Source: an uncultured Collinsella sp. (GTDB lineage: Bacteria; Actinomycetota; Coriobacteriia; Coriobacteriales; Coriobacteriaceae). Taken from it: 64,000 nucleotides of DNA. The notes under the pieces are model-generated. The model was not told the DNA's origin, did not search any database, and was given only the letters and a program-made list of their open reading frames with translations. Shown piece after piece: positions 15,701 to 47,756 of this stretch. Positions within the stretch are counted from its first letter, which is position 1; each line of letters opens with the position of its first letter. The DNA is taken from contig UQIB01000001.1 of NCBI GenBank assembly GCA_900541015.1, positions 23,519 through 87,518 of the forward strand, read 5' to 3'. A program made the position numbers and the translations under genes.

Positions 15701-15901
15701 GTCATGAGTATACCGCGCAGCTCATGTGGGGTGCGTGTATGTGCTTGCAAATCCCGAATTCTTGTCTAAGATATGGATTTGCCCTCGACTACACCGAAGA
15801 AGTTGGTCTCACGGACTTCACCTGCCCGCGTCGATGGCGTATTATGTTCAACTGTTTGTTTGTAGTTGCAGCCTAAAGCTGCTTGGTTGGAGGAGTTTCC
15901 T

Positions 15902-16243
15902 TTGGCAGTCAAGATTCGCCTTGCTCGTCACGGCGCTAAGAAGCGTCCGTACTACCGTGTCGTCGTCGCCGATTCCCGCGCCCCGCGTGACGGTCGTATC
16001 ATCGAGGAGGTTGGCCGCTACAACCCGATGACCGCCCCCAAGACCATCAACCTCGACCTCGAGAAGATCGCCGACTGGCAGTCCAAGGGCGCTCAGCTCA
16101 CCGACGCCGTCGCCGCTCTGGTCAAGGCCGCCAACGAGGGCGAGAAGACCGAGACCGTCGTCAAGAAGTCCAAGAAGCAGCTCGCCAAAGAGGCCGAGGC
16201 CGCTAAGGCTGCCGCTGAGGCCGCTGAGGGCGCCGAGGAGTAA
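15902..16243 (+). CDS. rpsP: 30S ribosomal protein S16 with an Ala/Glu/Lys-rich C-terminal extension
   Basis: [25 protein letters not shown]; TTG start 6 nt after GGAGGAG. Confidence 0.9.
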
Positions 16244-16285
16244 ATCGTGCCTGAGGTTGACGCTGCACAGCTCGAGGGTGAGGCA

Positions 16286-16531
16286 ATGCTCTCAGATCGC
16301 ATCGCCGATCTCGTCGAATATCTCGTTGTTCAGATCGTCGACGACCCGGATTCCGTGAGCCTTGAGGTCATCGATGGTGACGACGCCTCTACGATTGAGG
16401 TTTCGGTCGCCGAGGATGACGTCGCTAAGGTCATCGGCCGTCGTGGCCGTACCATTAAGGCCATTCGCACGCTCGCCCGTGCACTGGCCGCTCGCCTCGA
16501 CACTGCTGTCGAGGTAGAGGTTCTGGGCTAG
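16286..16531 (+). CDS. KH-domain RNA-binding protein (YlqC/UPF0109)
   Basis: VIGRRGRTIKAIRTL GxxG KH motif; conserved rpsP-KH-rimM-trmD order; ORF could extend to a GTG at 16247. Confidence 0.8.
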   Translation: MLSDRIADLVEYLVVQIVDDPDSVSLEVIDGDDASTIEVSVAEDDVAKVIGRRGRTIKAIRTLARALAARLDTAVEVEVLG

Positions 16532-16535
16532 GACC

Positions 16536-17057
16536 TTGAGGTCCCAGTACAAAAACATCGCCCGTGTGGTCAAGCCGCACGGAAGGAAGGGGGAGGTCCT
16601 CGCGCAGCCGCTGCGGGGGCTTCCTTCTGTATTAGAGCCGGGTATGCGCGTCGCCCTGACGCCGCCGGCGCTCAAGCGCGACCGCTTTTGCACGGTCGTG
16701 TCCGTCACCGATACGGGCGATGGCGATCTGGTCTCGTTTGAGGGCATTGACGACTTGACGGCCGCCGAGGGCATCACGGGATGCTACGTGCTGGCAAATC
16801 GTGACGATTTTGAGGTCGATTCGCTCGACGCTGCCTATACCGACCTGATGGGTCGCGAGGTGGTCGACGAGCGCTTCGGTTCGCTCGGCACGATCGTTGA
16901 GATCATGTCGACGCCCGCTAACGATGTTTGGGTTGTCGAGGGTGATCGGTACGGCGAGGTACTGATTCCCGTGATCGAGCAGGTTGTGCTCGATCTTCCC
17001 GACACAGGAACAATTTCCGTCCACGTGATGGACGGCCTGATCGATATGGACAAGTAG
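16536..17057 (+). CDS. rimM: 16S rRNA processing protein RimM
   Basis: ARVVKPHGRKGEV N-terminal motif; PRC-barrel-like C-terminus; TTG start. Confidence 0.85.
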   Translation: MRSQYKNIARVVKPHGRKGEVLAQPLRGLPSVLEPGMRVALTPPALKRDRFCTVVSVTDTGDGDLVSFEGIDDLTAAEGITGCYVLANRDDFEVDSLDAAYTDLMGREVVDERFGSLGTIVEIMSTPANDVWVVEGDRYGEVLIPVIEQVVLDLPDTGTISVHVMDGLIDMDK

Positions 17058-17067
17058 GGAGGACAAC

Positions 17068-17826
17068 ATGCTGATTGAGACCCTTTCGGTCTTTCCCGAG
17101 ATGTTTGAGCCCGTCATGTCAACGTCGATTTTGGGCCGCGCCCGCAAGGCCGGCCTTTTTGATTTTAAGGCGTATAACCTGCGCGACTGGACGCACGACC
17201 GCCATCGTACCGTCGATGACGAGCCGTACGGCGGCGGGCAGGGCATGCTCATGAAGGTCGAGCCTATCGCCGAGGCCATCGAGGCCATTAGCGCAGAGGG
17301 TCCCAAGCCCACTGTGGTGTTCTTTACCCCCTGTGGCGAGCCTTTTACGCAGCATGTGGCCGAGCGCCTGCTCAAAAGTGAGCGCCTGCTGTTTGTGTGC
17401 AGTCGCTACGAGGGCGTCGACGAGCGCGCGTATGCGTATGCCGATGAGCGTCTGTCGATCGGCGACTATGTGCTCACGGGCGGCGAACTTCCCGCTATGG
17501 TCGTTACCGATGCCGTCGTACGCCTGATTCCCGGCGCCCTGGGCGACGAGATGAGCAACGTCGACGAGTCGTTCTCGACCGCCGAGGACGGAGGCCTGCT
17601 CGAGTACGCGCAGTACACCCGTCCCGCCGAGTTCAACGGCGAGGGCGTGCCGCCGGTGCTTGTGAGCGGCGATCACGCCAAGGTCGATGCCTGGCGTCGC
17701 AAGAACGCCATCGAGCGCACCTGCCGCTGGCGTCCCGATCTGATCGAGACAGCGCGGCTCACGCCCGAGGAGCGCGCTTACGCGCAGGAGATTTTGGACG
17801 CTTCGTATTCGCAGAGCGAGGAGTGA
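17068..17826 (+). CDS. trmD: tRNA (guanine37-N1)-methyltransferase
   Basis: IETLSVFPEMF...DDEPYGGGQGMLM SPOUT motifs. Confidence 0.9.
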   Translation: MLIETLSVFPEMFEPVMSTSILGRARKAGLFDFKAYNLRDWTHDRHRTVDDEPYGGGQGMLMKVEPIAEAIEAISAEGPKPTVVFFTPCGEPFTQHVAERLLKSERLLFVCSRYEGVDERAYAYADERLSIGDYVLTGGELPAMVVTDAVVRLIPGALGDEMSNVDESFSTAEDGGLLEYAQYTRPAEFNGEGVPPVLVSGDHAKVDAWRRKNAIERTCRWRPDLIETARLTPEERAYAQEILDASYSQSEE

Positions 17827-18392
17827 GAATGGTTCCATCGCAGCATTCCGCGTTGAGGGGCGCTTTTGAGTGGATCGCGGTCATCGCGATCGCGCTTGTG
17901 GCCACGTTCCTGATCCGTACCTTTGTGGTCGAGCCCTTTGTGGTGCCCACCGGCTCCATGGAGTCCACGATCGAGATTGGCGACCAGATCCTGGCACAAA
18001 AGGTGAGCCTCGAGCTCGGTCAGCCCGTCAAGCAGGGCGATATCGTGGTGTTTCACAACCCCGATGGCACCTCCGAGCATGATGTTCTTGTCAAGCGTGT
18101 TATTGCCACGGCCGGCCAGACGGTCGACCTGCAGGATGGCAAGGTGGTCGTTGACGGCCAAGCGCTCGACGAGGACTATACGACGGGCATGAGCTGGCCG
18201 CTTTCGGTCCAAGCGCCCGGTGCTCAGGTGAGCTATCCCTACACCGTTCCCGACGGGTGCGTGTGGGTGATGGGCGACAACCGCGAAAACTCTGCCGACT
18301 CACGCTACTTTGGTCCCGTCGACCGCTCCGAATTGATCGCTGTGGCACTCGTTCGCTACTGGCCGCTCAACCGCATCGGCGCTATCGACTAA
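17823..18392 (+). CDS. lepB: signal peptidase I
   Basis: N-terminal TM helix; catalytic GSMESTI Ser box and VKRVIA Lys box; GDNRENSADSRYFG. Confidence 0.88.
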   Translation: MRMVPSQHSALRGAFEWIAVIAIALVATFLIRTFVVEPFVVPTGSMESTIEIGDQILAQKVSLELGQPVKQGDIVVFHNPDGTSEHDVLVKRVIATAGQTVDLQDGKVVVDGQALDEDYTTGMSWPLSVQAPGAQVSYPYTVPDGCVWVMGDNRENSADSRYFGPVDRSELIAVALVRYWPLNRIGAID

Positions 18393-18451
18393 AAACCGCT
18401 ATAGTACAGTACCTAACCGTGTAATCGTTTCGACGAGGGGATATTAGAGGC

Positions 18452-19363
18452 ATGAACGCTTCATCGCTTTCCTTCCAAGACATCATCCTGCGCCTCCAGC
18501 AGTACTGGGGCGAGCAGGGCTGCGTCATTATGCAGCCCTATGACTCCGAGGTCGGTGCCGGTACCTTCCATACCGCGACCACGCTGCGCTCGCTCGGTCC
18601 CGCCGAGTGGCGCACCTGCTATGCGCAGCCTTGCCGCCGTCCCGCCGACGGCCGCTACGGCGAGAACCCCAACCGCATGCAGCACTACTATCAGTTCCAG
18701 GTGCTCATCAAGCCCTCACCGGTCAACGCCCAGGAGCTTTACCTGGGGTCTCTTGCCGCTATCGGTCTGGACCCCAACGACCATGACGTCCGCTTTGTCG
18801 AGGACGACTGGGAGAGCCCGACGCTCGGCGCCTGGGGCCTTGGCTGGGAGGTCTGGCTCAACGGCATGGAGGTCACGCAGTTTACGTACTTCCAGCAGGT
18901 AGGCGGCATCGAGGTCGACCCCGTACCCGTCGAGATCACCTATGGCCTAGAGCGCATTGCCATGTATGCGCAGGGCGTTAACTCGGTCTACGACTTGGTG
19001 TGGAGCTACCTGCCCGACGGCACGCCCATGACCTATGGCGACGTGTTCCTCGAGAACGAGCGCGAGTTCAGTGCCTATAACTTTGAGGTCGCAAACGTCG
19101 AGATGATGCGTCAGAAGTTTGATGACTACGAGGCCGAGTGCCATTCCTGCCTGGAGCGCAAGCTGCCGCTGCCGGCATATGACTGCGTCATGAAGTGCAG
19201 CCACGCTTTCAACCTGCTCGATGCCCGCGGCGCCCTGTCCGCGGTCGAGCGTGCCAACTACATCCTGCGCGTCCGCGCCGTCGCCAAGGCGTGCTGCGAG
19301 GCCTACATGGCCGAGGTCGCCGGAGTCAACGAGAATGCCGACCAGGAAGGCGAGGTGGCGTAA
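18452..19363 (+). CDS. glyQ: glycine--tRNA ligase alpha subunit
   Basis: [25 protein letters not shown]-terminus, highly conserved in GlyQ. Confidence 0.93.
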
Positions 19364-19366
19364 GCC

Positions 19367-21463
19367 ATGGCAGACGCTAAGGATTTCCTGTTTGAGATCG
19401 GTACGGAGGAAATGCCCTCCGCACCGCTGAACAATGCCGTCAAGCAGCTTGGCACCATGATCGCCAAGGGTCTCGACGAGGCCGGTCTGGCTCACGGCGA
19501 GGTCCGCGTGATCTCGAGCCCGCGTCGTCTTGCCGCGCTCGTGGCTAATGTTGCCACCGCGACCGATGAGGTTCACGAGGTCAAGCGCGGTCCCGCGGCA
19601 AACATTGCCTTTGATGCCGACGGCAACGCCACTAAGGCCGCCCAGGGCTTTGCCCGCAAGTGCGGTGTGGCTGCCGAGGATCTGGTCCGTCGCGAGGACA
19701 CCGACGGTCGCGAGTATGTGTTCGCCGAGAAGAACATTCCCTCCGCACCGGCTACCCCGATCCTGACGGCCCTGTGCGAGAAGACCATCGCCGGCCTGCA
19801 GTGGCCCAACTACCGCTCCCAGCGCTGGGGCCACGAGCACGCGACGTTCGTGCGTCCTGTCCGCTGGATCTGCTGCCTTTTGGGCGAGGATGTTGTGCCC
19901 GTGTCGTTTGCTGACGTGACGAGTGGCAACATCACGCGCGGTCATCGCGTACTTGGCCCTGGCGACCATGTGGTTGCCAGCCCCGCTGTTTACGAGCAGG
20001 TGCTCGAGGACGCCGGTGTGCTTTCTGCCGAGCGTCGTCGTGAGGCCATCCTCGCCGGTATCGCCGAGGTCGAGGCTGCCCGTCCCGGCTGCCATGTCGA
20101 TACGCCCAAGAAGGTCTTTGAGGAGGTCATTAACCTCTGCGAGTGGCCGACGGTGCTCGTCGGTACCTTCGATGAGGAGTTTCTCAATGTCCCGCACGAG
20201 ATTATCTGCGAGTCCATGCTCACCAACCAGCGCTACTTCCCGATCTATGACGGCGAGGGCAAGCTCACGCGTGAGTTCGTGGTCGTTTCCAACAGCAAGC
20301 CCGAGAATGCCGAGCGCGTGATTGACGGCAACGAGCGCGTCGTGCGCGCCCGTCTGGACGACGCCAAGTTCTTCTACGAGGAGGACCTGAAGATCTCCCT
20401 CGACGAGTTCCGCGAGCGTCTGGCCAAGGTCGCCTTCCAGGAGAAGCTCGGTAGCGTGCTCGCCAAGTCCGAGCGTATTGAGCAGCTCGCGCTCGCCATC
20501 GCCCGCGAGGCCCATCTGGGTGCCCACCTTGCCGCCGATGCCGCTCGCGCCGCTCACCTGTGCAAGGCCGACCTGGTATCGAACGCCGTCGTTGAGTTCA
20601 CGAGCCAGCAGGGCGTGATGGGCGGTTATTACGCCTCCGCGATGGGGGAGAACGACGAGGTCGCCCACGCCATTCGCGATCATTATCGTCCCCGCTTCGC
20701 CGGCGATGAGCTGCCCGAGGGCACCGCTGGCTGCATCGTGGCCTGTGCCGACAAGCTCGATACCATCGCCGGTATTTTTGCCATCGGCGAGCCCCCGACC
20801 GGCTCTTCGGACCCCTACGCGCTGCGTCGTGCCGCTATCGGCATCATCAATATCCTGCGCGACCGTCTGCCGATCGACCCCACGTCGCTTATCGACTTCG
20901 CCCTCGAGCTCTATGGCGAGCAGGGCATTGAGTTCGACGCCGCCGAGGTCGCCCAGCAGGTTCGTGACTTCTTCCATGGCCGCCTGGTGAGCATGGCCCG
21001 CGACGAAAAGATCCCGGCCGATACCGTTGCCGCCGTCTCTGCAGTGCACATCATCGCCCCGTCCGTCTTCTTCGCCCGCTGCGCCGCCCTCGACGAGGCC
21101 CGCAAGAACGACGCTGAGACGTTCGACAACCTGGCGACCGCCTATGCCCGCGCCGCGCACATCTCCAAGCCCGAGCTGGGTGCGAAGTACGACCGCAGCC
21201 TGATGGGCGAGGCCGAGCTCGCGCTTGCCGACGCCTCCGAGGCTGCTCAGACCGCTGTAGATGCCGCCCTTGCTGCCGAGGACTACCCGGCCGCATTTGC
21301 CGCCCTCGCCGCCCTGCGTGCTCCCATTGACCGCTTCTTCGACGAGGTTATGGTCATGGACAAGGACGAGCAGCTCCGCGATAATCGCCTTAAGCTGCTC
21401 AACCGCTTCGAGGCCGTTTTCTCCGGCATCGCCAACATCGGTGAGCTTGCCCGCAAAAAGTAA
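19367..21463 (+). CDS. glyS: glycine--tRNA ligase beta subunit
   Basis: 698-aa ORF directly after glyQ; conserved MPSAP N-terminal region. Confidence 0.9.
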   Translation: MADAKDFLFEIGTEEMPSAPLNNAVKQLGTMIAKGLDEAGLAHGEVRVISSPRRLAALVANVATATDEVHEVKRGPAANIAFDADGNATKAAQGFARKCGVAAEDLVRREDTDGREYVFAEKNIPSAPATPILTALCEKTIAGLQWPNYRSQRWGHEHATFVRPVRWICCLLGEDVVPVSFADVTSGNITRGHRVLGPGDHVVASPAVYEQVLEDAGVLSAERRREAILAGIAEVEAARPGCHVDTPKKVFEEVINLCEWPTVLVGTFDEEFLNVPHEIICESMLTNQRYFPIYDGEGKLTREFVVVSNSKPENAERVIDGNERVVRARLDDAKFFYEEDLKISLDEFRERLAKVAFQEKLGSVLAKSERIEQLALAIAREAHLGAHLAADAARAAHLCKADLVSNAVVEFTSQQGVMGGYYASAMGENDEVAHAIRDHYRPRFAGDELPEGTAGCIVACADKLDTIAGIFAIGEPPTGSSDPYALRRAAIGIINILRDRLPIDPTSLIDFALELYGEQGIEFDAAEVAQQVRDFFHGRLVSMARDEKIPADTVAAVSAVHIIAPSVFFARCAALDEARKNDAETFDNLATAYARAAHISKPELGAKYDRSLMGEAELALADASEAAQTAVDAALAAEDYPAAFAALAALRAPIDRFFDEVMVMDKDEQLRDNRLKLLNRFEAVFSGIANIGELARKK

Positions 21464-21497
21464 GCCAGCCTGCGCATAAGCGCAAAAGGAGCCCCGC

Positions 21498-22373
21498 ATG
21501 GATTGCCCGGTCACCGCTCGTCCCACCGTCATCGTTATCTCCGACTCGCTCGGTGATACCGCTTGTGAGGTGGTGCTTGCGGCGTCCGGGCAATTTGATG
21601 AAGGGGCTTTTCGCGTTTTGCGCCTGCCCAAGGTGACCTCCGTGGAGCAGGTCAAGTCATTTGTGGGGCCGCGTGTCGATGCGGACCATCGCGATATCGC
21701 CGTGTTCCACACCATTGTCGATCCGGCGCTTCGCGCCCGCGTGCTCGATTACCTGGGTATGCTGCATATCCGTTCGGTCGACCTGATCGGCCCGACGCTC
21801 GCCGTGCTGTCGTCGCTCATCGGTGTGTCGCCAAAGGGCGTCGCGGGCGTGATTCACAAGACTGATGACCGCTATTTCCATCGTATCGAGGCCATGGAGT
21901 ATTTCGTTGAGCACGATGATGGACGCGGCTGCGACGACCTTTCGGGAGCCGATATCGTGCTGCTGGGCGTATCCCGCACGTCCAAGACGCCGCTGTCGAT
22001 GTATTTGGCCTATCAGGGTTACAAGGTTGCCAATGTTCCGTTGGCCCATGGCATGGAGCCGCCGAAGTCGATTTACGAGGTTGACCCGACGCGCCTGTTC
22101 GGCCTGATTTCGACCGTCGACGTTATTTCTGAGATTCGCGATAGCCGCTTGGGCGATGATTACGCCCGTGCCGTTGCCGGCTCCTATGCCGAGCCCGAGA
22201 GTGTGCGCAGCGAGCTCGAGGAAGCCCGTGCCCTCATGAAGCGCCTAGGCTGCTTTGTGGTGCGTACCGATGGCAAGGCGATCGAGGAGAGTGCCTCCGA
22301 GATCATTAGCCACTTGGAGGAAATCCAAGAAGTCCGCGCCCGCCGCGCCGCCCGCCGAGCCCAGCAAAGCTAG
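21498..22373 (+). CDS. pyruvate phosphate dikinase regulatory protein (PDRP; bifunctional kinase/pyrophosphorylase, DUF299)
   Basis: VIVISDSLGDTA N-terminus and P-loop GVSRTSKTPLSMYLA; directly upstream of ppdK. Confidence 0.85.
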   Translation: MDCPVTARPTVIVISDSLGDTACEVVLAASGQFDEGAFRVLRLPKVTSVEQVKSFVGPRVDADHRDIAVFHTIVDPALRARVLDYLGMLHIRSVDLIGPTLAVLSSLIGVSPKGVAGVIHKTDDRYFHRIEAMEYFVEHDDGRGCDDLSGADIVLLGVSRTSKTPLSMYLAYQGYKVANVPLAHGMEPPKSIYEVDPTRLFGLISTVDVISEIRDSRLGDDYARAVAGSYAEPESVRSELEEARALMKRLGCFVVRTDGKAIEESASEIISHLEEIQEVRARRAARRAQQS

Positions 22374-22383
22374 CTCATTGGGG

Positions 22384-22547
22384 TAGCTAAAATGCCCGTC
22401 TATATAAGACTAGCTAAAAATAATGCACGATATTGGTAAAGCGATTTAGCAAGAAACTGGCATTTGACCTGTAAGCTTCCTGCATTGGTATCTTCATAAG
22501 GTAACCACCTTTACCTACCGTTTACCGCCACATTTACCACGTTTACC
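22384..22547. promoter_or_regulatory. repeat-rich, AT-richer control region upstream of ppdK: TAGCTAAAA direct repeats, a TTGACC/TGgTATCTT promoter-like element, and a phased TTTACC array with inverted GGTAAA/GGTAAC copies
   Basis: TAGCTAAAA at 22384 and 22411; TTTACC at 22510, 22521, 22533, 22542; GGTAAA at 22435; GGTAAC at 22500. Confidence 0.45.
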
Positions 22548-22669
22548 AAACCCCGCGCCCTCTACGCAAGCCCGCTCAATGCCCGCCGTATAGTACCCTC
22601 ACGGCCCGCATCCGGCGGGTCGATTCGTCACCACGGTCGTGCGCGAGAGTGCATGGAAGGGGAAGTATC

Positions 22670-25420
<2,751 letters not shown>

Positions 25421-25532
25421 CGTTTTGGGTTTAGACGCCTAGCGTAGCCCCCCTCATGCCGTCCGTCTCATTCGTGAGGCGGGCGGCTATCATGTGCGGG
25501 TTTTGTCTTTTTGTCTGCGTAAAAAATTGTTC

Positions 25533-25560
25533 TTGCAGCAGAAACCCGCGCGTGTATACT
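25533..25560 (+). promoter_or_regulatory. candidate sigma-70-type promoter for rplS (TTGCAG, 16 nt spacer, TATACT), followed by a GTGCCG...CGGCAC leader hairpin
   Basis: Hexamers read directly from sequence; no experimental support. Confidence 0.3.
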
Positions 25561-25629
25561 CGAATACGTTTGTTCAACTACGTGCCGGCCAAGGTGGTAC
25601 GGCACCTCTAGAAGAGTAAGGAATTGCAC

Positions 25630-25971
25630 ATGGATTACATCCGCGCAATCGAGCGTCAGCAGATCCGCGAGGACATTCCTCAGGTTCGCGTCGCCGACAA
25701 CGTCAAGGTTCACTACCGCATTAAGGAAGGCGACCGCGAGCGCATCCAGGTCTTCCAGGGCGACGTCATCCGCATGGCCGGCGCCGGTGCCCGCGAGACC
25801 TTCACCGTCCGCAAGATGTCCTTCGGTGTCGGTGTTGAGCGTACCTTCCCGCTTCACAGCCCCAAGATCGCCAAGCTCGAGGTCGTTCGTCATGGTCGCG
25901 TCCGTCGCGCCAAGCTGTACTACCTCCGCGACAAGGTGGGCAAGGCTGCTCGCATCCCCGAGAAGCGCTAA
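25630..25971 (+). CDS. rplS: 50S ribosomal protein L19
   Basis: [47 protein letters not shown]. Confidence 0.93.
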
Positions 25972-43616: not shown

Positions 43617-46265
43617 CTAGCAGACGGCGTAGTCCTGGGGCTCGCGGCCGTAGTAGGCGTCCAGGTAGAGCTCCTTGATCTCGCTCATGAGCGGGTAGCG
43701 CGGGTTAGCGCCGGTGCACTGGTCGTTGAATGCCTGCTCGGTCATCTCGTCGAGGGTGTCGAGGAAGTACTGCTCGTCAACACCGTAGTCGGCGATGGTC
43801 TTCTTGACGCCGATGAAGTCCTTGAGCTCCTCGAGCTTCGTGATGAAGTTCTCGAAGACCTCCTTGTCGTCCTTGCCCTCGATGCCGCAGTACTTGGCCA
43901 TCTCGGCGTAGTTGTGCAGCGCGTTGGGGTAAGGATACTGGGAGAAGGTGCCCATCTTGACGGGGGCCTCGGCGGCGTTGTAGCGCATGACGCGAGTCAG
44001 GATGACGGCGTTGGCGAGGCCGTGGGGCAGGTGATGGAAGGCGCCGAGCTTGTGGGCCATGGAGTGGTTGAGGCCCAGGAAGGCGTTGGCGAAGGCCATA
44101 CCGGCCATGCAGGAGGCGTTGTGCATCTCCTCGCGGGCATGCGGATCTTTGGCGCCGTTCGTGAAGCTGGAGGGCAGGTTCTCGAAGACGAGCTTAGCAG
44201 CGCGCTCGGAGAGGCCCTTGGTGTAGTCGGAAGCCATGATGGAGACGTAGGACTCGATGGCGTGGGTCATGACGTCGATGCCGGAGGCAGCGGTCAGGCC
44301 GCGCGGGGCGGTCATGCAGTTGTCGGCGTCGACGATAGCCATGTTGGGGAGCAGCGCGTAGTCGGCGAGCGGCCACTTGATGCCGGTCTCCTTGTCGGTG
44401 ATGATGGCGAACGGCGTGCACTCGGAGCCGGTACCCGAAGAGGTCGGGACGGCGACGAAGTAGGCCTTCTTGCCCATCTCGGGGAAGGTGAAGATACGCT
44501 TGCGGATGTCCATGAAGTCCATGGCCATGTCCTCAAACTTGCACTCGGGGTGCTCGTACATCATCCACATGATCTTGCCGGCGTCCATAGCGGAGCCACC
44601 GCCGACGGCGATGATGACGTCCGGCTCAAAGAGAGCCATCTGCTTGGCGCCGCGACGTGCGCACTGCAGCGACGGATCGGGCTCGACGTCGTAGAAGCAG
44701 TCGTGGGCGATGCCCATCTCGTCGAGCTTGGCCTCGATGGCGCGGGTGTTGCCATTCTTGAAGAGGAACTGGTCGGTGACGATGAAGGCACGCTTCTTGC
44801 CCATGACGTTGCCCAGCTCGTCGAGGGCGACGGGCGTGGAACCCTTCTTGAAGTAGACCTTCTCGGGAGCGCGGAACCACAGCATGTTCTCACGGCGCTC
44901 GGCCACAGTCTTAACGTTGATCAAGTGCTTCACCCCAACGTTCTCGGAGACGGAGTTGCCGCCCCAGGAGCCGCAGCCCAGGGTCAGAGACGGCTTCATG
45001 CCAAAGTTGTACAGGTCACCGATGCCGCCGTGCGAGGACGGGGTGTTGATGACGATACGGCAGGCCTTCATGACGTGCTCGAACAGGCTGATCTTCTCGG
45101 CCTGAGCGGGGTGCACGTACAGAGAGGCGGTGTGGCCCGGGCCACCGGCGAGCACCAGGCGCTCGGCCTTGTCGACGGCCTCCTGGAAGTCCTTGGCGTG
45201 GTACATGGCCAGGACCGGGGAGAGCTTCTCGTGGGAGAACTCCTCCTTGGCGGGGTCGGTGGAGGTGACCTCGGCGATCAGGATCTTGGTCTTGGCGGGA
45301 ACCTCGATGCCGGCGAGCTCGGCGATCTTGGCAGCGGCCATGCCGGGGATGCGGTGATCGAGAGCGCCGTTCTTGAACATGGCGGCACGCAGGGCCTCCA
45401 TCTCGGCACCCTGCTTGACGAAGTAGCAGCCGCGCTTCTGGAACTCGGCCTTAACCTGGTCATAGATGGTGTCGATGACGGTCACGGACTGCTCGGAAGC
45501 GCAGATCATGCCGTTGTCGAAGGTCTTGGAGTGAATGATGGAGTTGACGGCGAGCAGCACGTCGGCGGTGTCGTCGATGACGACCGGGGTGTTACCGGCG
45601 CCAACGCCCAGGGCGGGCTTGCCCGAGGAGTAAGCGGCCTTGACCATGCCCGGGCCACCGGTGGCGAGGATGATGTCGACGTCGCGCATGACCATGTTGG
45701 TCAGCTCGATGGAGGGGACATCGACCCAGCCGATGATGCCCTCGGGGGCGCCGGCCTTGACGGCGGCGTCAAGCACGAGCTTGGCGGCGGCGATGGTGCA
45801 CTTGGCGGCAGCCGGGTGCGGGGAGATGATGATGGCGTTGCGGGTCTTCAGGCAGATCAGCGTCTTGAAGATCGCGGTGGAGGTGGGGTTGGTCGTCGGG
45901 ATGACGGCGCCCACGATGCCGATGGGCTCGGCGATCTTGGTGATGCCGTAAGCCTCGTCGCGCTCCAGGACACCACAGGTCTTGGTGTTCTTGTAAGCGT
46001 TGTAGATGTACTCTGCGGCGTAGTGGTTCTTGATGACCTTGTCCTCAAGAACGCCGCGGCCGGTCTCCTCGATGGCCATCTTCGCCAACGGGATACGAGC
46101 CTTGTTGGCGGCCATGGCGGCCTCATAGAAGATCTTGTCGACCTGCTCCTGCGTGTACGTAGCAAAAAGCGCCTGGGCCTCTCGCATCTGAGCGAGCTTG
46201 GCCTCAAGCGCCTCTACGTTGTCCACAATTGCGGGAGTAGTGTTTTCCGGTGACTTTTTCACCAT
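43617..46265 (-). CDS. adhE: bifunctional acetaldehyde-CoA/alcohol dehydrogenase
   Basis: 882 aa; N-terminal ALDH domain and C-terminal iron-ADH domain (GGGSAMDAGK); AAGGAGA RBS. Confidence 0.92.
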   Translation of the reverse strand: MVKKSPENTTPAIVDNVEALEAKLAQMREAQALFATYTQEQVDKIFYEAAMAANKARIPLAKMAIEETGRGVLEDKVIKNHYAAEYIYNAYKNTKTCGVLERDEAYGITKIAEPIGIVGAVIPTTNPTSTAIFKTLICLKTRNAIIISPHPAAAKCTIAAAKLVLDAAVKAGAPEGIIGWVDVPSIELTNMVMRDVDIILATGGPGMVKAAYSSGKPALGVGAGNTPVVIDDTADVLLAVNSIIHSKTFDNGMICASEQSVTVIDTIYDQVKAEFQKRGCYFVKQGAEMEALRAAMFKNGALDHRIPGMAAAKIAELAGIEVPAKTKILIAEVTSTDPAKEEFSHEKLSPVLAMYHAKDFQEAVDKAERLVLAGGPGHTASLYVHPAQAEKISLFEHVMKACRIVINTPSSHGGIGDLYNFGMKPSLTLGCGSWGGNSVSENVGVKHLINVKTVAERRENMLWFRAPEKVYFKKGSTPVALDELGNVMGKKRAFIVTDQFLFKNGNTRAIEAKLDEMGIAHDCFYDVEPDPSLQCARRGAKQMALFEPDVIIAVGGGSAMDAGKIMWMMYEHPECKFEDMAMDFMDIRKRIFTFPEMGKKAYFVAVPTSSGTGSECTPFAIITDKETGIKWPLADYALLPNMAIVDADNCMTAPRGLTAASGIDVMTHAIESYVSIMASDYTKGLSERAAKLVFENLPSSFTNGAKDPHAREEMHNASCMAGMAFANAFLGLNHSMAHKLGAFHHLPHGLANAVILTRVMRYNAAEAPVKMGTFSQYPYPNALHNYAEMAKYCGIEGKDDKEVFENFITKLEELKDFIGVKKTIADYGVDEQYFLDTLDEMTEQAFNDQCTGANPRYPLMSEIKELYLDAYYGREPQDYAVC

Positions 46266-46358
46266 TTGTGTCTCCTTGCGATCGGAGATTTACCCTACGC
46301 CTTGCATGATAGCAAGAAATTATTCGGCGAACGGTAAGATTCCTCTAAAAGGCACACT

Positions 46359-46386
46359 AAAACGCTTCAATAAACTGAAGCGTTTT
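46359..46386. promoter_or_regulatory. perfect 11-bp inverted repeat AAAACGCTTCA-N6-TGAAGCGTTTT in the adhE upstream / rpmB downstream region
   Basis: Exact palindrome read from sequence; function (operator or second terminator) unknown. Confidence 0.4.
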
Positions 46387-46428
46387 AACTAAACTATCTG
46401 CCAGTGCATCGCCCTGCCCCCAATGAGT

Positions 46429-46531: not shown

Positions 46532-46720
46532 TTAGGAGCGCGCAACCTTGCCAGACTTGAGGCAGGTGGAGCAAACGTTCATCTTGCGACGGTGACCGTC
46601 GACGACGACGTAGACGCGCTGGATGTTGGGGCGGAACTTACGGTTGGTGACGCGGTGAGAGTGGCTGATGGAGCGACCGGCAACGGGGTGCTTACCGCAA
46701 ACTTCGCAAACTTTGGACAT
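46532..46720 (-). CDS. rpmB: 50S ribosomal protein L28
   Basis: MSKVCEVCGKHPVAGRSISHSHRVTNRKFRPN signature. Confidence 0.9.
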   Translation of the reverse strand: MSKVCEVCGKHPVAGRSISHSHRVTNRKFRPNIQRVYVVVDGHRRKMNVCSTCLKSGKVARS

Positions 46721-47039
46721 AACTGACCCTCCTTGGGCGACAAACGAACATGTCGCGTTAACAAACAAGCCTGAACTATAGCACAGAAGTCGCTCCCTGT
46801 GCGCAATCTACACAGAGATATTTCTCTTTTGGCGATAGTGCCCACGCTACGGCCCTGGACGTAGATCCGATTTGCGTGCAGCAGAGGGGATTATGCCAGC
46901 TCGTGCGTGCGTTTTCAAGTTCGTCCCACAAATATATATAGGTTTATGGAGCATTGGGCTCCGTTTACGGATTGCTTTGTATTAATGCTCGCAATTGAGC
47001 TCGAGGTTGGCTACACTATCCCTTGACCATTAAAGGGGT

Positions 47040-47756
<717 letters not shown>

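Follow-up and report, generated by a model that had tools for sequence, protein, structure and literature searches.

The gap between the PDRP gene and ppdK on contig UQIB01000001.1 of an uncultured Collinsella sp. contains a real, selected and clade-specific cis-regulatory module, which consists of an array of four TTTAnC hexamers and two 16-bp inverted repeats, O1 and O2, in the ppdK promoter region. The window, i.e. the whole stretch of DNA analysed here, comprises 64,000 nucleotides (assembly GCA_900541015.1, positions 23,519 to 87,518 of the contig), and its host belongs to the Collinsella aerofaciens species complex (the encoded PPDK is 96-98% identical to proteins of ~35 Collinsella genomes). 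The motifs of the module, their geometry, the selective constraint on them and their limited phylogenetic range were observed directly. To account for them we tentatively favour, as the best of several readings and at somewhat less than an even chance, a DNA-binding regulator that is encoded elsewhere in the genome and brackets the ppdK promoter via the TTTAnC sites. We rank this reading above a function at the RNA level, which in turn comes before a response regulator activating a promoter with a TATAGT box and, last, the absence of any function.

The ppdK gene most likely starts at the GTG codon at 22670, behind the ribosome-binding site GGAAGGGGAAG; from this codon, public gene calls and tblastn matches give a product of 916 amino acids. 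With this start the gap measures 296 bp, and the length of 275 bp proposed in the first-pass annotation of the window was therefore not retained. That the gap is AT-rich, as this annotation had also stated, was readily seen from its G+C content of 35-45%, compared with about 60-65% in the surroundings. Likewise, the four TTTACC copies on the + strand at 22510, 22521, 22533 and 22542 (copies 1 to 4), as well as the inverted copies GGTAAA at 22435 and GGTAAC at 22500, were recovered exactly where they had been placed before.

Evidence for selection came from 33 sequences of the aerofaciens group, 31 of them distinct, whose upstream regions were aligned; five relatives with 87-90% PPDK identity were added later. 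As a neutral baseline we used the 238 four-fold degenerate sites of ppdK, which showed a nucleotide diversity (pi) of 0.19 and were invariant in 22% of cases. From position 22435 onward, conserved boxes alternate with neutral-like spacers, as follows:

22435-22450, no strand assigned: O1, GGTAAA-GCGA-TTTAGC, a 16-bp inverted repeat of TTTAnC half-sites round an invariant central CG; pi 0.048
Spacer from O1 to the -35-like hexamer: pi 0.32
22464-22469, + strand: -35-like TTGACC (CTGACC in most relatives), 19 nt from the -10; pi 0.076
Spacer between -35 and -10: pi 0.34
22486-22494, + strand: TGGTATCTT, the extended -10 of a predicted promoter, P1; pi 0.027, with neutral-like spacers (0.32-0.34) around it
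22495-22526: pi 0-0.04
22500-22515, no strand assigned: O2, GGTAAC-CACC-TTTACC, a 16-bp inverted repeat whose right half is array copy 1; pi 0.043
22510-22547, + strand: array of four same-strand TTTAnC hexamers in steps of 11, 12 and 9 bp; pi 0.25 for the neutral-like spacer 2, 0.079 for copy 3 and about 0-0.01 for spacer 3 and copy 4
22548-22585: pi 0.17
22586-22594, + strand: CCGTATAGT box, including TATAGT at 22589-22594, a candidate -10 of a second predicted promoter, P2, or an RNA element; invariant, pi 0

Altogether, pi amounted to 0-0.05 for O1, O2, copies 1, 2 and 4, and spacers 1 and 3. Set against the neutral baseline, this low diversity shows that the array is under purifying selection. 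In line with its earlier description as phased, the array is thus a selected and sequence-specific element.

Within the array, copy 2 was invariant in 37/37 sequences, copies 1 and 4 were identical in 32/33, and no indels occurred. Copy 3 reads TTTACC, TTTAGC or TTTATC, mostly TTTAGC, and varies only at hexamer position 5. When extra alleles were counted over the left and right halves of O1, the left half of O2 and copies 1-4, position 5 had 8 of them and every other position 1-3; tolerance at this position was seen in both halves of O1 and in copies 1 and 3. This pile-up at position 5 defines the recognition unit as TTTA[C/G/T]C, here abbreviated to TTTAnC. In dinucleotide shuffles of the gap, any hexamer occurred at least four times in 1.2% of cases. 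Across the window, TTTACC was found 25 times versus 9 expected, with 21 of these on the + strand, and outside the array it lies mostly in coding sequence. A fifth same-strand word, GTTTACCG at 22688-22695, covers ppdK codons 7-9 (Val-Tyr-Arg, in the conserved N-terminus) and is probably coincidental.

The inverted copies of the hexamer proved to be meaningful, as the first-pass annotation had suspected, since both GGTAAA (22435) and GGTAAC (22500) have a TTTAnC hexamer as a partner 4 bases downstream, which gives O1 and O2 the same 6-N4-6 geometry. When the window was searched for GNTAAANNNNTTTANC with at most one mismatch, O1 (0 mismatches) and O2 were the only matches, and Collinsella loci totalling ~560 kb, with redundancy, yielded hardly any match outside O1 and O2. 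Variation in the hexamers of O1 is restricted to position 5, and its centre reads GCGA, TCGA, TCGC or ACGA with an invariant CG; in L085, a relative with 90% PPDK identity, O1 is the perfect palindrome GGTAAATCGATTTACC. The centre of O2 reads CACC, CATC or CATT and is without a central CG. The aerofaciens group has a distance of 75 ± 1 bp from O1 to copy 1, compared with 65 bp in four relatives and 67 bp in L081. The difference between 75 and 65 bp corresponds to one helical turn and is compatible with helical phasing, although it reflects a single event and is only weakly suggestive. That the array shares its tolerance at position 5 with O1, which is untranscribed from P1, argues most strongly for a single reader that recognises the sequence on the DNA. 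O1 lies upstream of P1, so that, if P1 is indeed the promoter, the constraint on O1 could not be exerted at the RNA level.

The phylogenetic range of the module is narrow. Complete arrays were detected only in the aerofaciens group, and partial ones in five of the relatives with 87-90% PPDK identity (L081, L085, L086, L087 and L171). The latter carry CTTTACCTACCGTTTACCG exactly or nearly so, followed by copy 3 in the form TTTATC (TTTGAT in L171) and by a degenerate copy 4 (CGYTCRCC or CGCCCGCC). A single CGTTTAC was seen in L082 (86%), and L029, L083, L084, L170 and L172 have no array. Three of these sequences (L083, L170 and L172, with 84-87% PPDK identity) have as few as 47-62 nt between the PDRP gene and ppdK, with neither O1 nor O2 nor array. 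The type of leader does not track PPDK identity, as L087 has the array at 87%.

The promoter-like pair mentioned in the first-pass annotation is present, with TGGTATCTT at 22486-22494, and the only correction concerns TTGACC, which occupies 22464-22469 and was thus quoted one base off, at ~22465. Judging from these boxes, transcription from P1 would start near 22500-22508. In L029 (77% identity), TGGTATCAT is kept and the right half of O1 is positioned as its -35. The relatives with 87-90% identity are without TGGTAT and keep CTTCATAWGGTAAYC, which contains a TANNNT hexamer and again predicts a start at ~22500-22508. Relative to the predicted P1 start, O1 is centred at about -59; O2 overlaps this start, while copies 2-4 fall within the first ~50 nt of the predicted P1 leader, the last of them ending ~40 bp upstream of TATAGT. 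The array is not situated upstream of the quoted promoter but downstream of it, at about +10 to +47 from the predicted P1 start. The TATAGT box is the most widely kept promoter-like element, being represented by TAGAGT in L029 and TATGAT in L082; TATAGT resides inside the 3′ end of the PDRP gene in L083 and L172, which have a gap of just ~50 nt. Relative to a predicted P2 start near 22601, the array would extend from about -91 to -54. Short public contigs were considered as a source of transcript starts and set aside as uninformative, L088 ending in the strain-variable segment that follows the PDRP gene and L089 being a metagenome scaffold.

From this arrangement we infer the promoter starts, the binding of a protein and the direction of its effect as follows. 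Conceivably, the regulator binds the TTTAnC hexamers cooperatively, with dimers on O1 and O2 that may be extended along the phased half-sites. This would either occlude P1 or block transcripts starting there, whereby PPDK synthesis would be tuned, possibly with a shift of expression towards the TATAGT promoter. A precedent for such a reader is the CpxR-type direct-repeat layout, which the reverse strand of copies 1 and 2 shows as GTAAA-N6-GTAAA and which illustrates that units of this sort are recognised by winged-helix regulators (PMC9600279). Several observations weigh against this scheme. P1, P2 and their start sites are predictions, and a simple sigma-70 scan with spacers of 16-18 nt called no promoter in the gap. 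All informative sequences are from close relatives. The hexamers are no more invariant than spacers 1 and 3, which means that the constrained unit may be a 19-mer and not separate hexamers. The left half of O2 is the least conserved element, with a direct TTTATC in its place in L081 and L171. Outside the ppdK gap, neither the array nor the 16-bp repeat was found within the 64 kb, and no regulator gene is located near the ppdK gap. Moreover, nucleotides 22503-22590 consist of 44% C and 12.5% G and are mostly unpaired according to the partition function, so that an RNA role also fits. The features of the ppdK leader that bear on such a role are:

22502-22590, + strand: C-rich, G-poor tract, predicted to be unpaired, beginning at the predicted P1 start
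22603-22621, + strand: leader hairpin 1, GGCCCGC-loop-GCGGGTC, with 97.5% of cells paired and one-sided, wobble-compatible changes
22638-22655, + strand: leader hairpin 2, CGTGCGC-GNRA-GTGCATG, abutting the ribosome-binding site, with three compensatory pairs
22655-22672, + strand: ribosome-binding site GGAAGGGGAAG and ppdK start codon, invariant in the alignment

The two hairpins together have 91.5% of cells paired, versus 27-42% when the partners are slid; variants of hairpin 2 include GTGTGC..GCACAT, and L029 and L082 have hairpins of different sequence at the same places. An RNAalifold prediction over the whole leader, in which copy 2 is paired with the start codon, was without covariation and was not adopted. 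A terminator scan revealed no intrinsic terminator in the gap, hairpin 1 being followed by GAUUCGU.

A less probable reading, which we nonetheless consider the most serious competitor of the DNA-binding regulator, is that the array acts at the RNA level, as an unpaired, C-rich and G-poor tract of ~90 nt with phased UUUAnC in the P1 transcripts. Such a tract could be a Rho loading platform similar to a Rho utilisation (rut) site, or the site of a sequence-specific RNA-binding protein, and the first unit could form a 5′-terminal hairpin with GGUAA that affects mRNA stability; control would then consist in premature termination or in decay of the mRNA, ahead of the two hairpins conserved in the leader. 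In line with this, the highest C-minus-G value of the window on the + strand (33% over 78 nt) begins at 22502, i.e. at the predicted P1 start, the leaders of relatives appear by eye to be similarly C-rich and G-poor where their sequences differ, and a fold of GGUAA with UUACC is predicted at the 5′ end. The remaining leader is, in addition, clearly a structured RNA with covariation. The tract also agrees with the published rut descriptors (PMC6144790), which ask for a C>G bubble that spans ~78 nt or more and for 4 or more members in a [(YC)N9-13] chain; its longest chain has 5 members, and its secondary structure is low. This agreement is unspecific, however, as YC chains of at least 5 occur in 28% of the 99-nt windows here, for which reason they were rejected as a specific rut signal, and C/G skews of equal strength exist at three places on the other strand. 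Furthermore, the Cs of the hexamer are no more invariant than its TTTA, the YC dimer is lost in copy 3, which is mostly TTTAGC, and spacer 2 tolerates G. Most of all, O1 shows constraint on this very hexamer, with tolerance at the same position, although it is not transcribed from P1. An anti-Shine-Dalgarno role was dismissed, as the duplex of the array with the ribosome-binding region reaches -14.1 kcal/mol compared with a shuffle mean of -20.3, and 99% of shuffles pair at least as well. A search of Rfam 15 with 22300-22750 on both strands gave no match up to E = 10. The narrower version of this reading, in which Rho or an RNA-binding protein reads phased UUUAnC at the head of a ~170-nt leader and O1 is a separate transcription-factor site, appears unlikely; if true, the leader and its two covarying hairpins would represent an undescribed cis-regulatory RNA governing PPDK and hence flux between phosphoenolpyruvate (PEP) and pyruvate in an actinobacterium that is abundant in the gut.

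It is likewise improbable that the direct repeats are boxes of an OmpR/PhoB-family response regulator which activates P2, the TATAGT promoter without a -35, O1 being a separate LacI-type operator; this could amount to a phosphate-type (Pho-like) control of an enzyme that depends on phosphate and pyrophosphate. In its favour, copies 1 and 2 are 11 bp apart and their reverse strand reads GTAAA-N6-GTAAA, as for CpxR (PMC9600279), and copies 2 and 4 read GTTTACC, which matches 6/7 of the Streptomyces GTTCACC(C) (PMC7244524). The wide conservation of TATAGT (in L029, L082, L083 and L172) without a good -35 and the array position of about -91 to -54 would also suit an activated promoter, and the invariant central CG of O1, absent from O2, resembles LacI-family operators; a similar CG-centred palindrome precedes adhE. 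Yet boxes that replace a -35 lie ~30 bp closer to their promoter than the array does, the separation of O1 from the array disregards their common hexamer and common tolerant position, and the likeness to known boxes extends over a short stretch. A broader motif, CCGYTYRCCG, seen upstream of ppdK in Atopobium-like loci, in adhE promoters and in copy 4 of relatives, was rejected as it occurred at about chance frequency in the loci examined, and its striking match in L035 lies inside the glyS coding sequence. We consider it very unlikely that the array has no specific function and is a by-product of slippage or duplication in an AT-rich gap, its conservation being only apparent among very close genomes. 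The narrow clade, with absence of the array at 86% PPDK identity or below, the 12-nt units such as ACCACnTTTACC, which suggest an origin by duplication, and the four copies of one hexamer that still arise in ~1% of shuffles would all be accommodated. Nevertheless, spacers and four-fold sites vary freely in the same alignment (pi 0.19-0.34), CTTTACCTACCGTTTACCG, a 19-mer, hardly changes at all across 37 sequences with PPDK identities of 87-100%, and substitutions are concentrated at one hexamer position. These considerations leave the DNA-binding regulator in the leading place.

The far 5′ part of the gap contains the direct repeats of TAGCTAAAA, which the first-pass annotation listed together with the hexamer array and which, on that view, would belong to the same operator system. 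This part is:

22374-22430, no strand assigned: strain-variable segment after the PDRP stop codon, not alignable among the 31 distinct Collinsella upstream regions

The coordinates of the two copies were correct (22384-22392 and 22411-22419), but the inclusion of TAGCTAAAA in the operator system is highly improbable and was abandoned. It is true that each copy includes TTTAGC in reverse complement (GCTAAA), oriented like the left half of O1, and that TAGCTAAAA is rare window-wide, with 2 occurrences versus 0.10 expected. Both copies are, however, found in only 2/32 relatives and no copy in 23/32, the G of GCTAAA in the second copy is not kept, a repeated 9-mer arises in 12.5% of local shuffles, and other strains have unrelated sequence in place of this segment. 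As an operator, TAGCTAAAA is thus neither conserved nor locally significant. In the upstream regions of L004, L009, L017 and L044, short repeats, among them GGGGTAGCTAAAAAA and CCCCGTCCCAA, occur as inverted copies in this segment, and words similar to these are present in the variable part upstream of adhE; they may constitute a small dispersed repeat family.

The adhE gene (43617-46265, minus strand, assigned with Pfam) has the only other central-carbon promoter in the window. Upstream of it we noted the following feature:

46358-46387, minus strand: inverted pair TAAAACGCTTCA / TGAAGCGTTTTA, resembling the inner 12 bp of O1

A search for TAAAGCGNTTTA with at most one mismatch gave 4 matches versus 0.22 expected, 2 of the 4 being O1 itself. 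The CG-centred pair of 12-mers is conserved in adhE relatives down to 85% identity, and the copy nearer the promoter has its centre ~60 bp upstream of a start that TATCAT predicts, much like O1 at ppdK. This faintly suggests adhE as a possible second target, and the sites could belong to a shared LacI/Cra-like operator for fermentation genes. Words of the array that are common to the adhE promoter were also inspected; 6- and 7-mers were at chance level (P about 0.6), and a 12/13 match in the adhE variant L091 was dismissed as cherry-picked. A second clear target of the ppdK module was not found in the 64-kb window. Further upstream of adhE, a small zinc-ribbon open reading frame (MSKVCEVCGK..., 46535-46720, minus strand) resembles ribosomal protein L28, and a gap of ~450 nt (46721-47171) separates it from a PyrR-like gene.

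The PyrR-like gene at 47172, which heads a pyr operon (pyrB, pyrC and others), has a phosphoribosyltransferase domain and is the one exception to the finding that no transcription factors were recognised among the 56 window proteins that were put to Pfam (7 of these had no match, and a few short called open reading frames were left out of the scan). This survey bears out the initial remark that no regulator gene is adjacent to the gap. The immediate flanks of the gap are ppdK on the 3′ side and, on the 5′ side:

21498-22373: PDRP (Kinase-PPPase) gene

Housekeeping genes make up the neighbourhood, with rpsP, khpA, rimM, trmD, lepB and glyQS on one side, and rplS and rnhB on the other. The rpsP-rimM-trmD-rplS genes usually form a contiguous ribosomal operon, and the block from lepB to ppdK falls inside it. 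Specifically, lepB, glyQS, the PDRP gene and ppdK sit between trmD and rplS (15866-25971), an order that is kept in L081 and L082. Between ppdK and rplS, L081, L085, L087 and L171 have one or two large genes without a Pfam hit on record, which are absent from the window; the inserted gene encodes 945-957 amino acids in L081, L087 and L171 (where the end of the locus cuts the copy), and L085 has two, of 398 and 551 amino acids.

PPDK operates at the PEP/pyruvate node of Collinsella, a prevalent genus of the human gut. The TTTAnC motif, with its 6-N4-6 repeats and phased array, can serve as bait for the regulator and as a pattern for regulon scans, and the possible link with adhE hints at a coordinated control of fermentation. 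As the kind of element is ordinary, the value of the module is local and not conceptual, and its general interest is modest.

In the papers that were searched we found neither a usable precedent for TTTACC direct repeats or GGTAAA/TTTACC operators, nor a description of the regulation of ppdK or adhE in Coriobacteriia, including Collinsella ppdK. The leader resembles rut sites in being long and in having an unpaired C>G tract that spans 78 nt or more, in which YC dimers recur at intervals of 9-13 nt (PMC6144790), and it is unlike them in the sequence-specific constraint on TTTA, the loss of the YC dimer in copy 3 and the commonness of the descriptors in this DNA. Among response-regulator boxes, the CpxR box is a direct repeat, GTAAA-N5-6-GTAAA, of the kind read by winged-helix regulators (PMC9600279), and the PHO box of Streptomyces PhoP consists of direct repeats of GTTCACCC in 11-nt units with the core GTTCACC (PMC7244524). 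The GTTTACC words at copies 2 and 4 are 21 bp apart, and copy 1 reads CTTTACC. With two hexamers at 22510 and 22521, the array has the spacing of OmpR/PhoB boxes, that is, at least two direct repeats of 5-7 bp placed 10-11 bp centre to centre. Like these boxes, it strings together several short direct repeats at a 10-11 bp period, all of which would be read alike. Unlike them, the hexamer also forms 6-N4-6 inverted repeats, the array follows one promoter and precedes the other at too great a distance to replace a -35, and the 64-kb window yielded no other member of a regulon.

The operators of glycolytic and sugar repressors such as DeoR and CggR of B. subtilis combine a palindrome with direct half-site repeats, or lie just downstream of the transcription start. 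The ppdK module would be similar to them in serving a central-carbon gene, in having sites that bracket or follow the start, and in the phasing of half-sites by about one helical turn, whereas the sequences are unrelated. Among global carbon regulators of the LacI family that bind upstream of central-metabolism promoters, AraQ and MalR1 of Bifidobacterium, in the Actinobacteria, have sites upstream of -35/-10 with the motif TGTGAGC><GCTCACA (PMC6882875). In E. coli, Cra/FruR is an activator of ppsA and also regulates adhE (PMC4393010). In common with such operators, the palindromes of O1 and adhE are CG-centred and precede the -35/-10 of ppdK, a relative of ppsA, and of adhE; the motif itself differs from that of AraQ/MalR1. 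A palindrome of 14-20 bp with a conserved central CG is seen in O1 and at adhE, but not in O2 or the direct repeats. LacI-type dimers are not known to read direct half-site arrays. Taken together, the elements at ppdK are of a familiar kind, that of promoter-proximal operators, of which they provide a new example with a clearer anatomy than in the earlier description.

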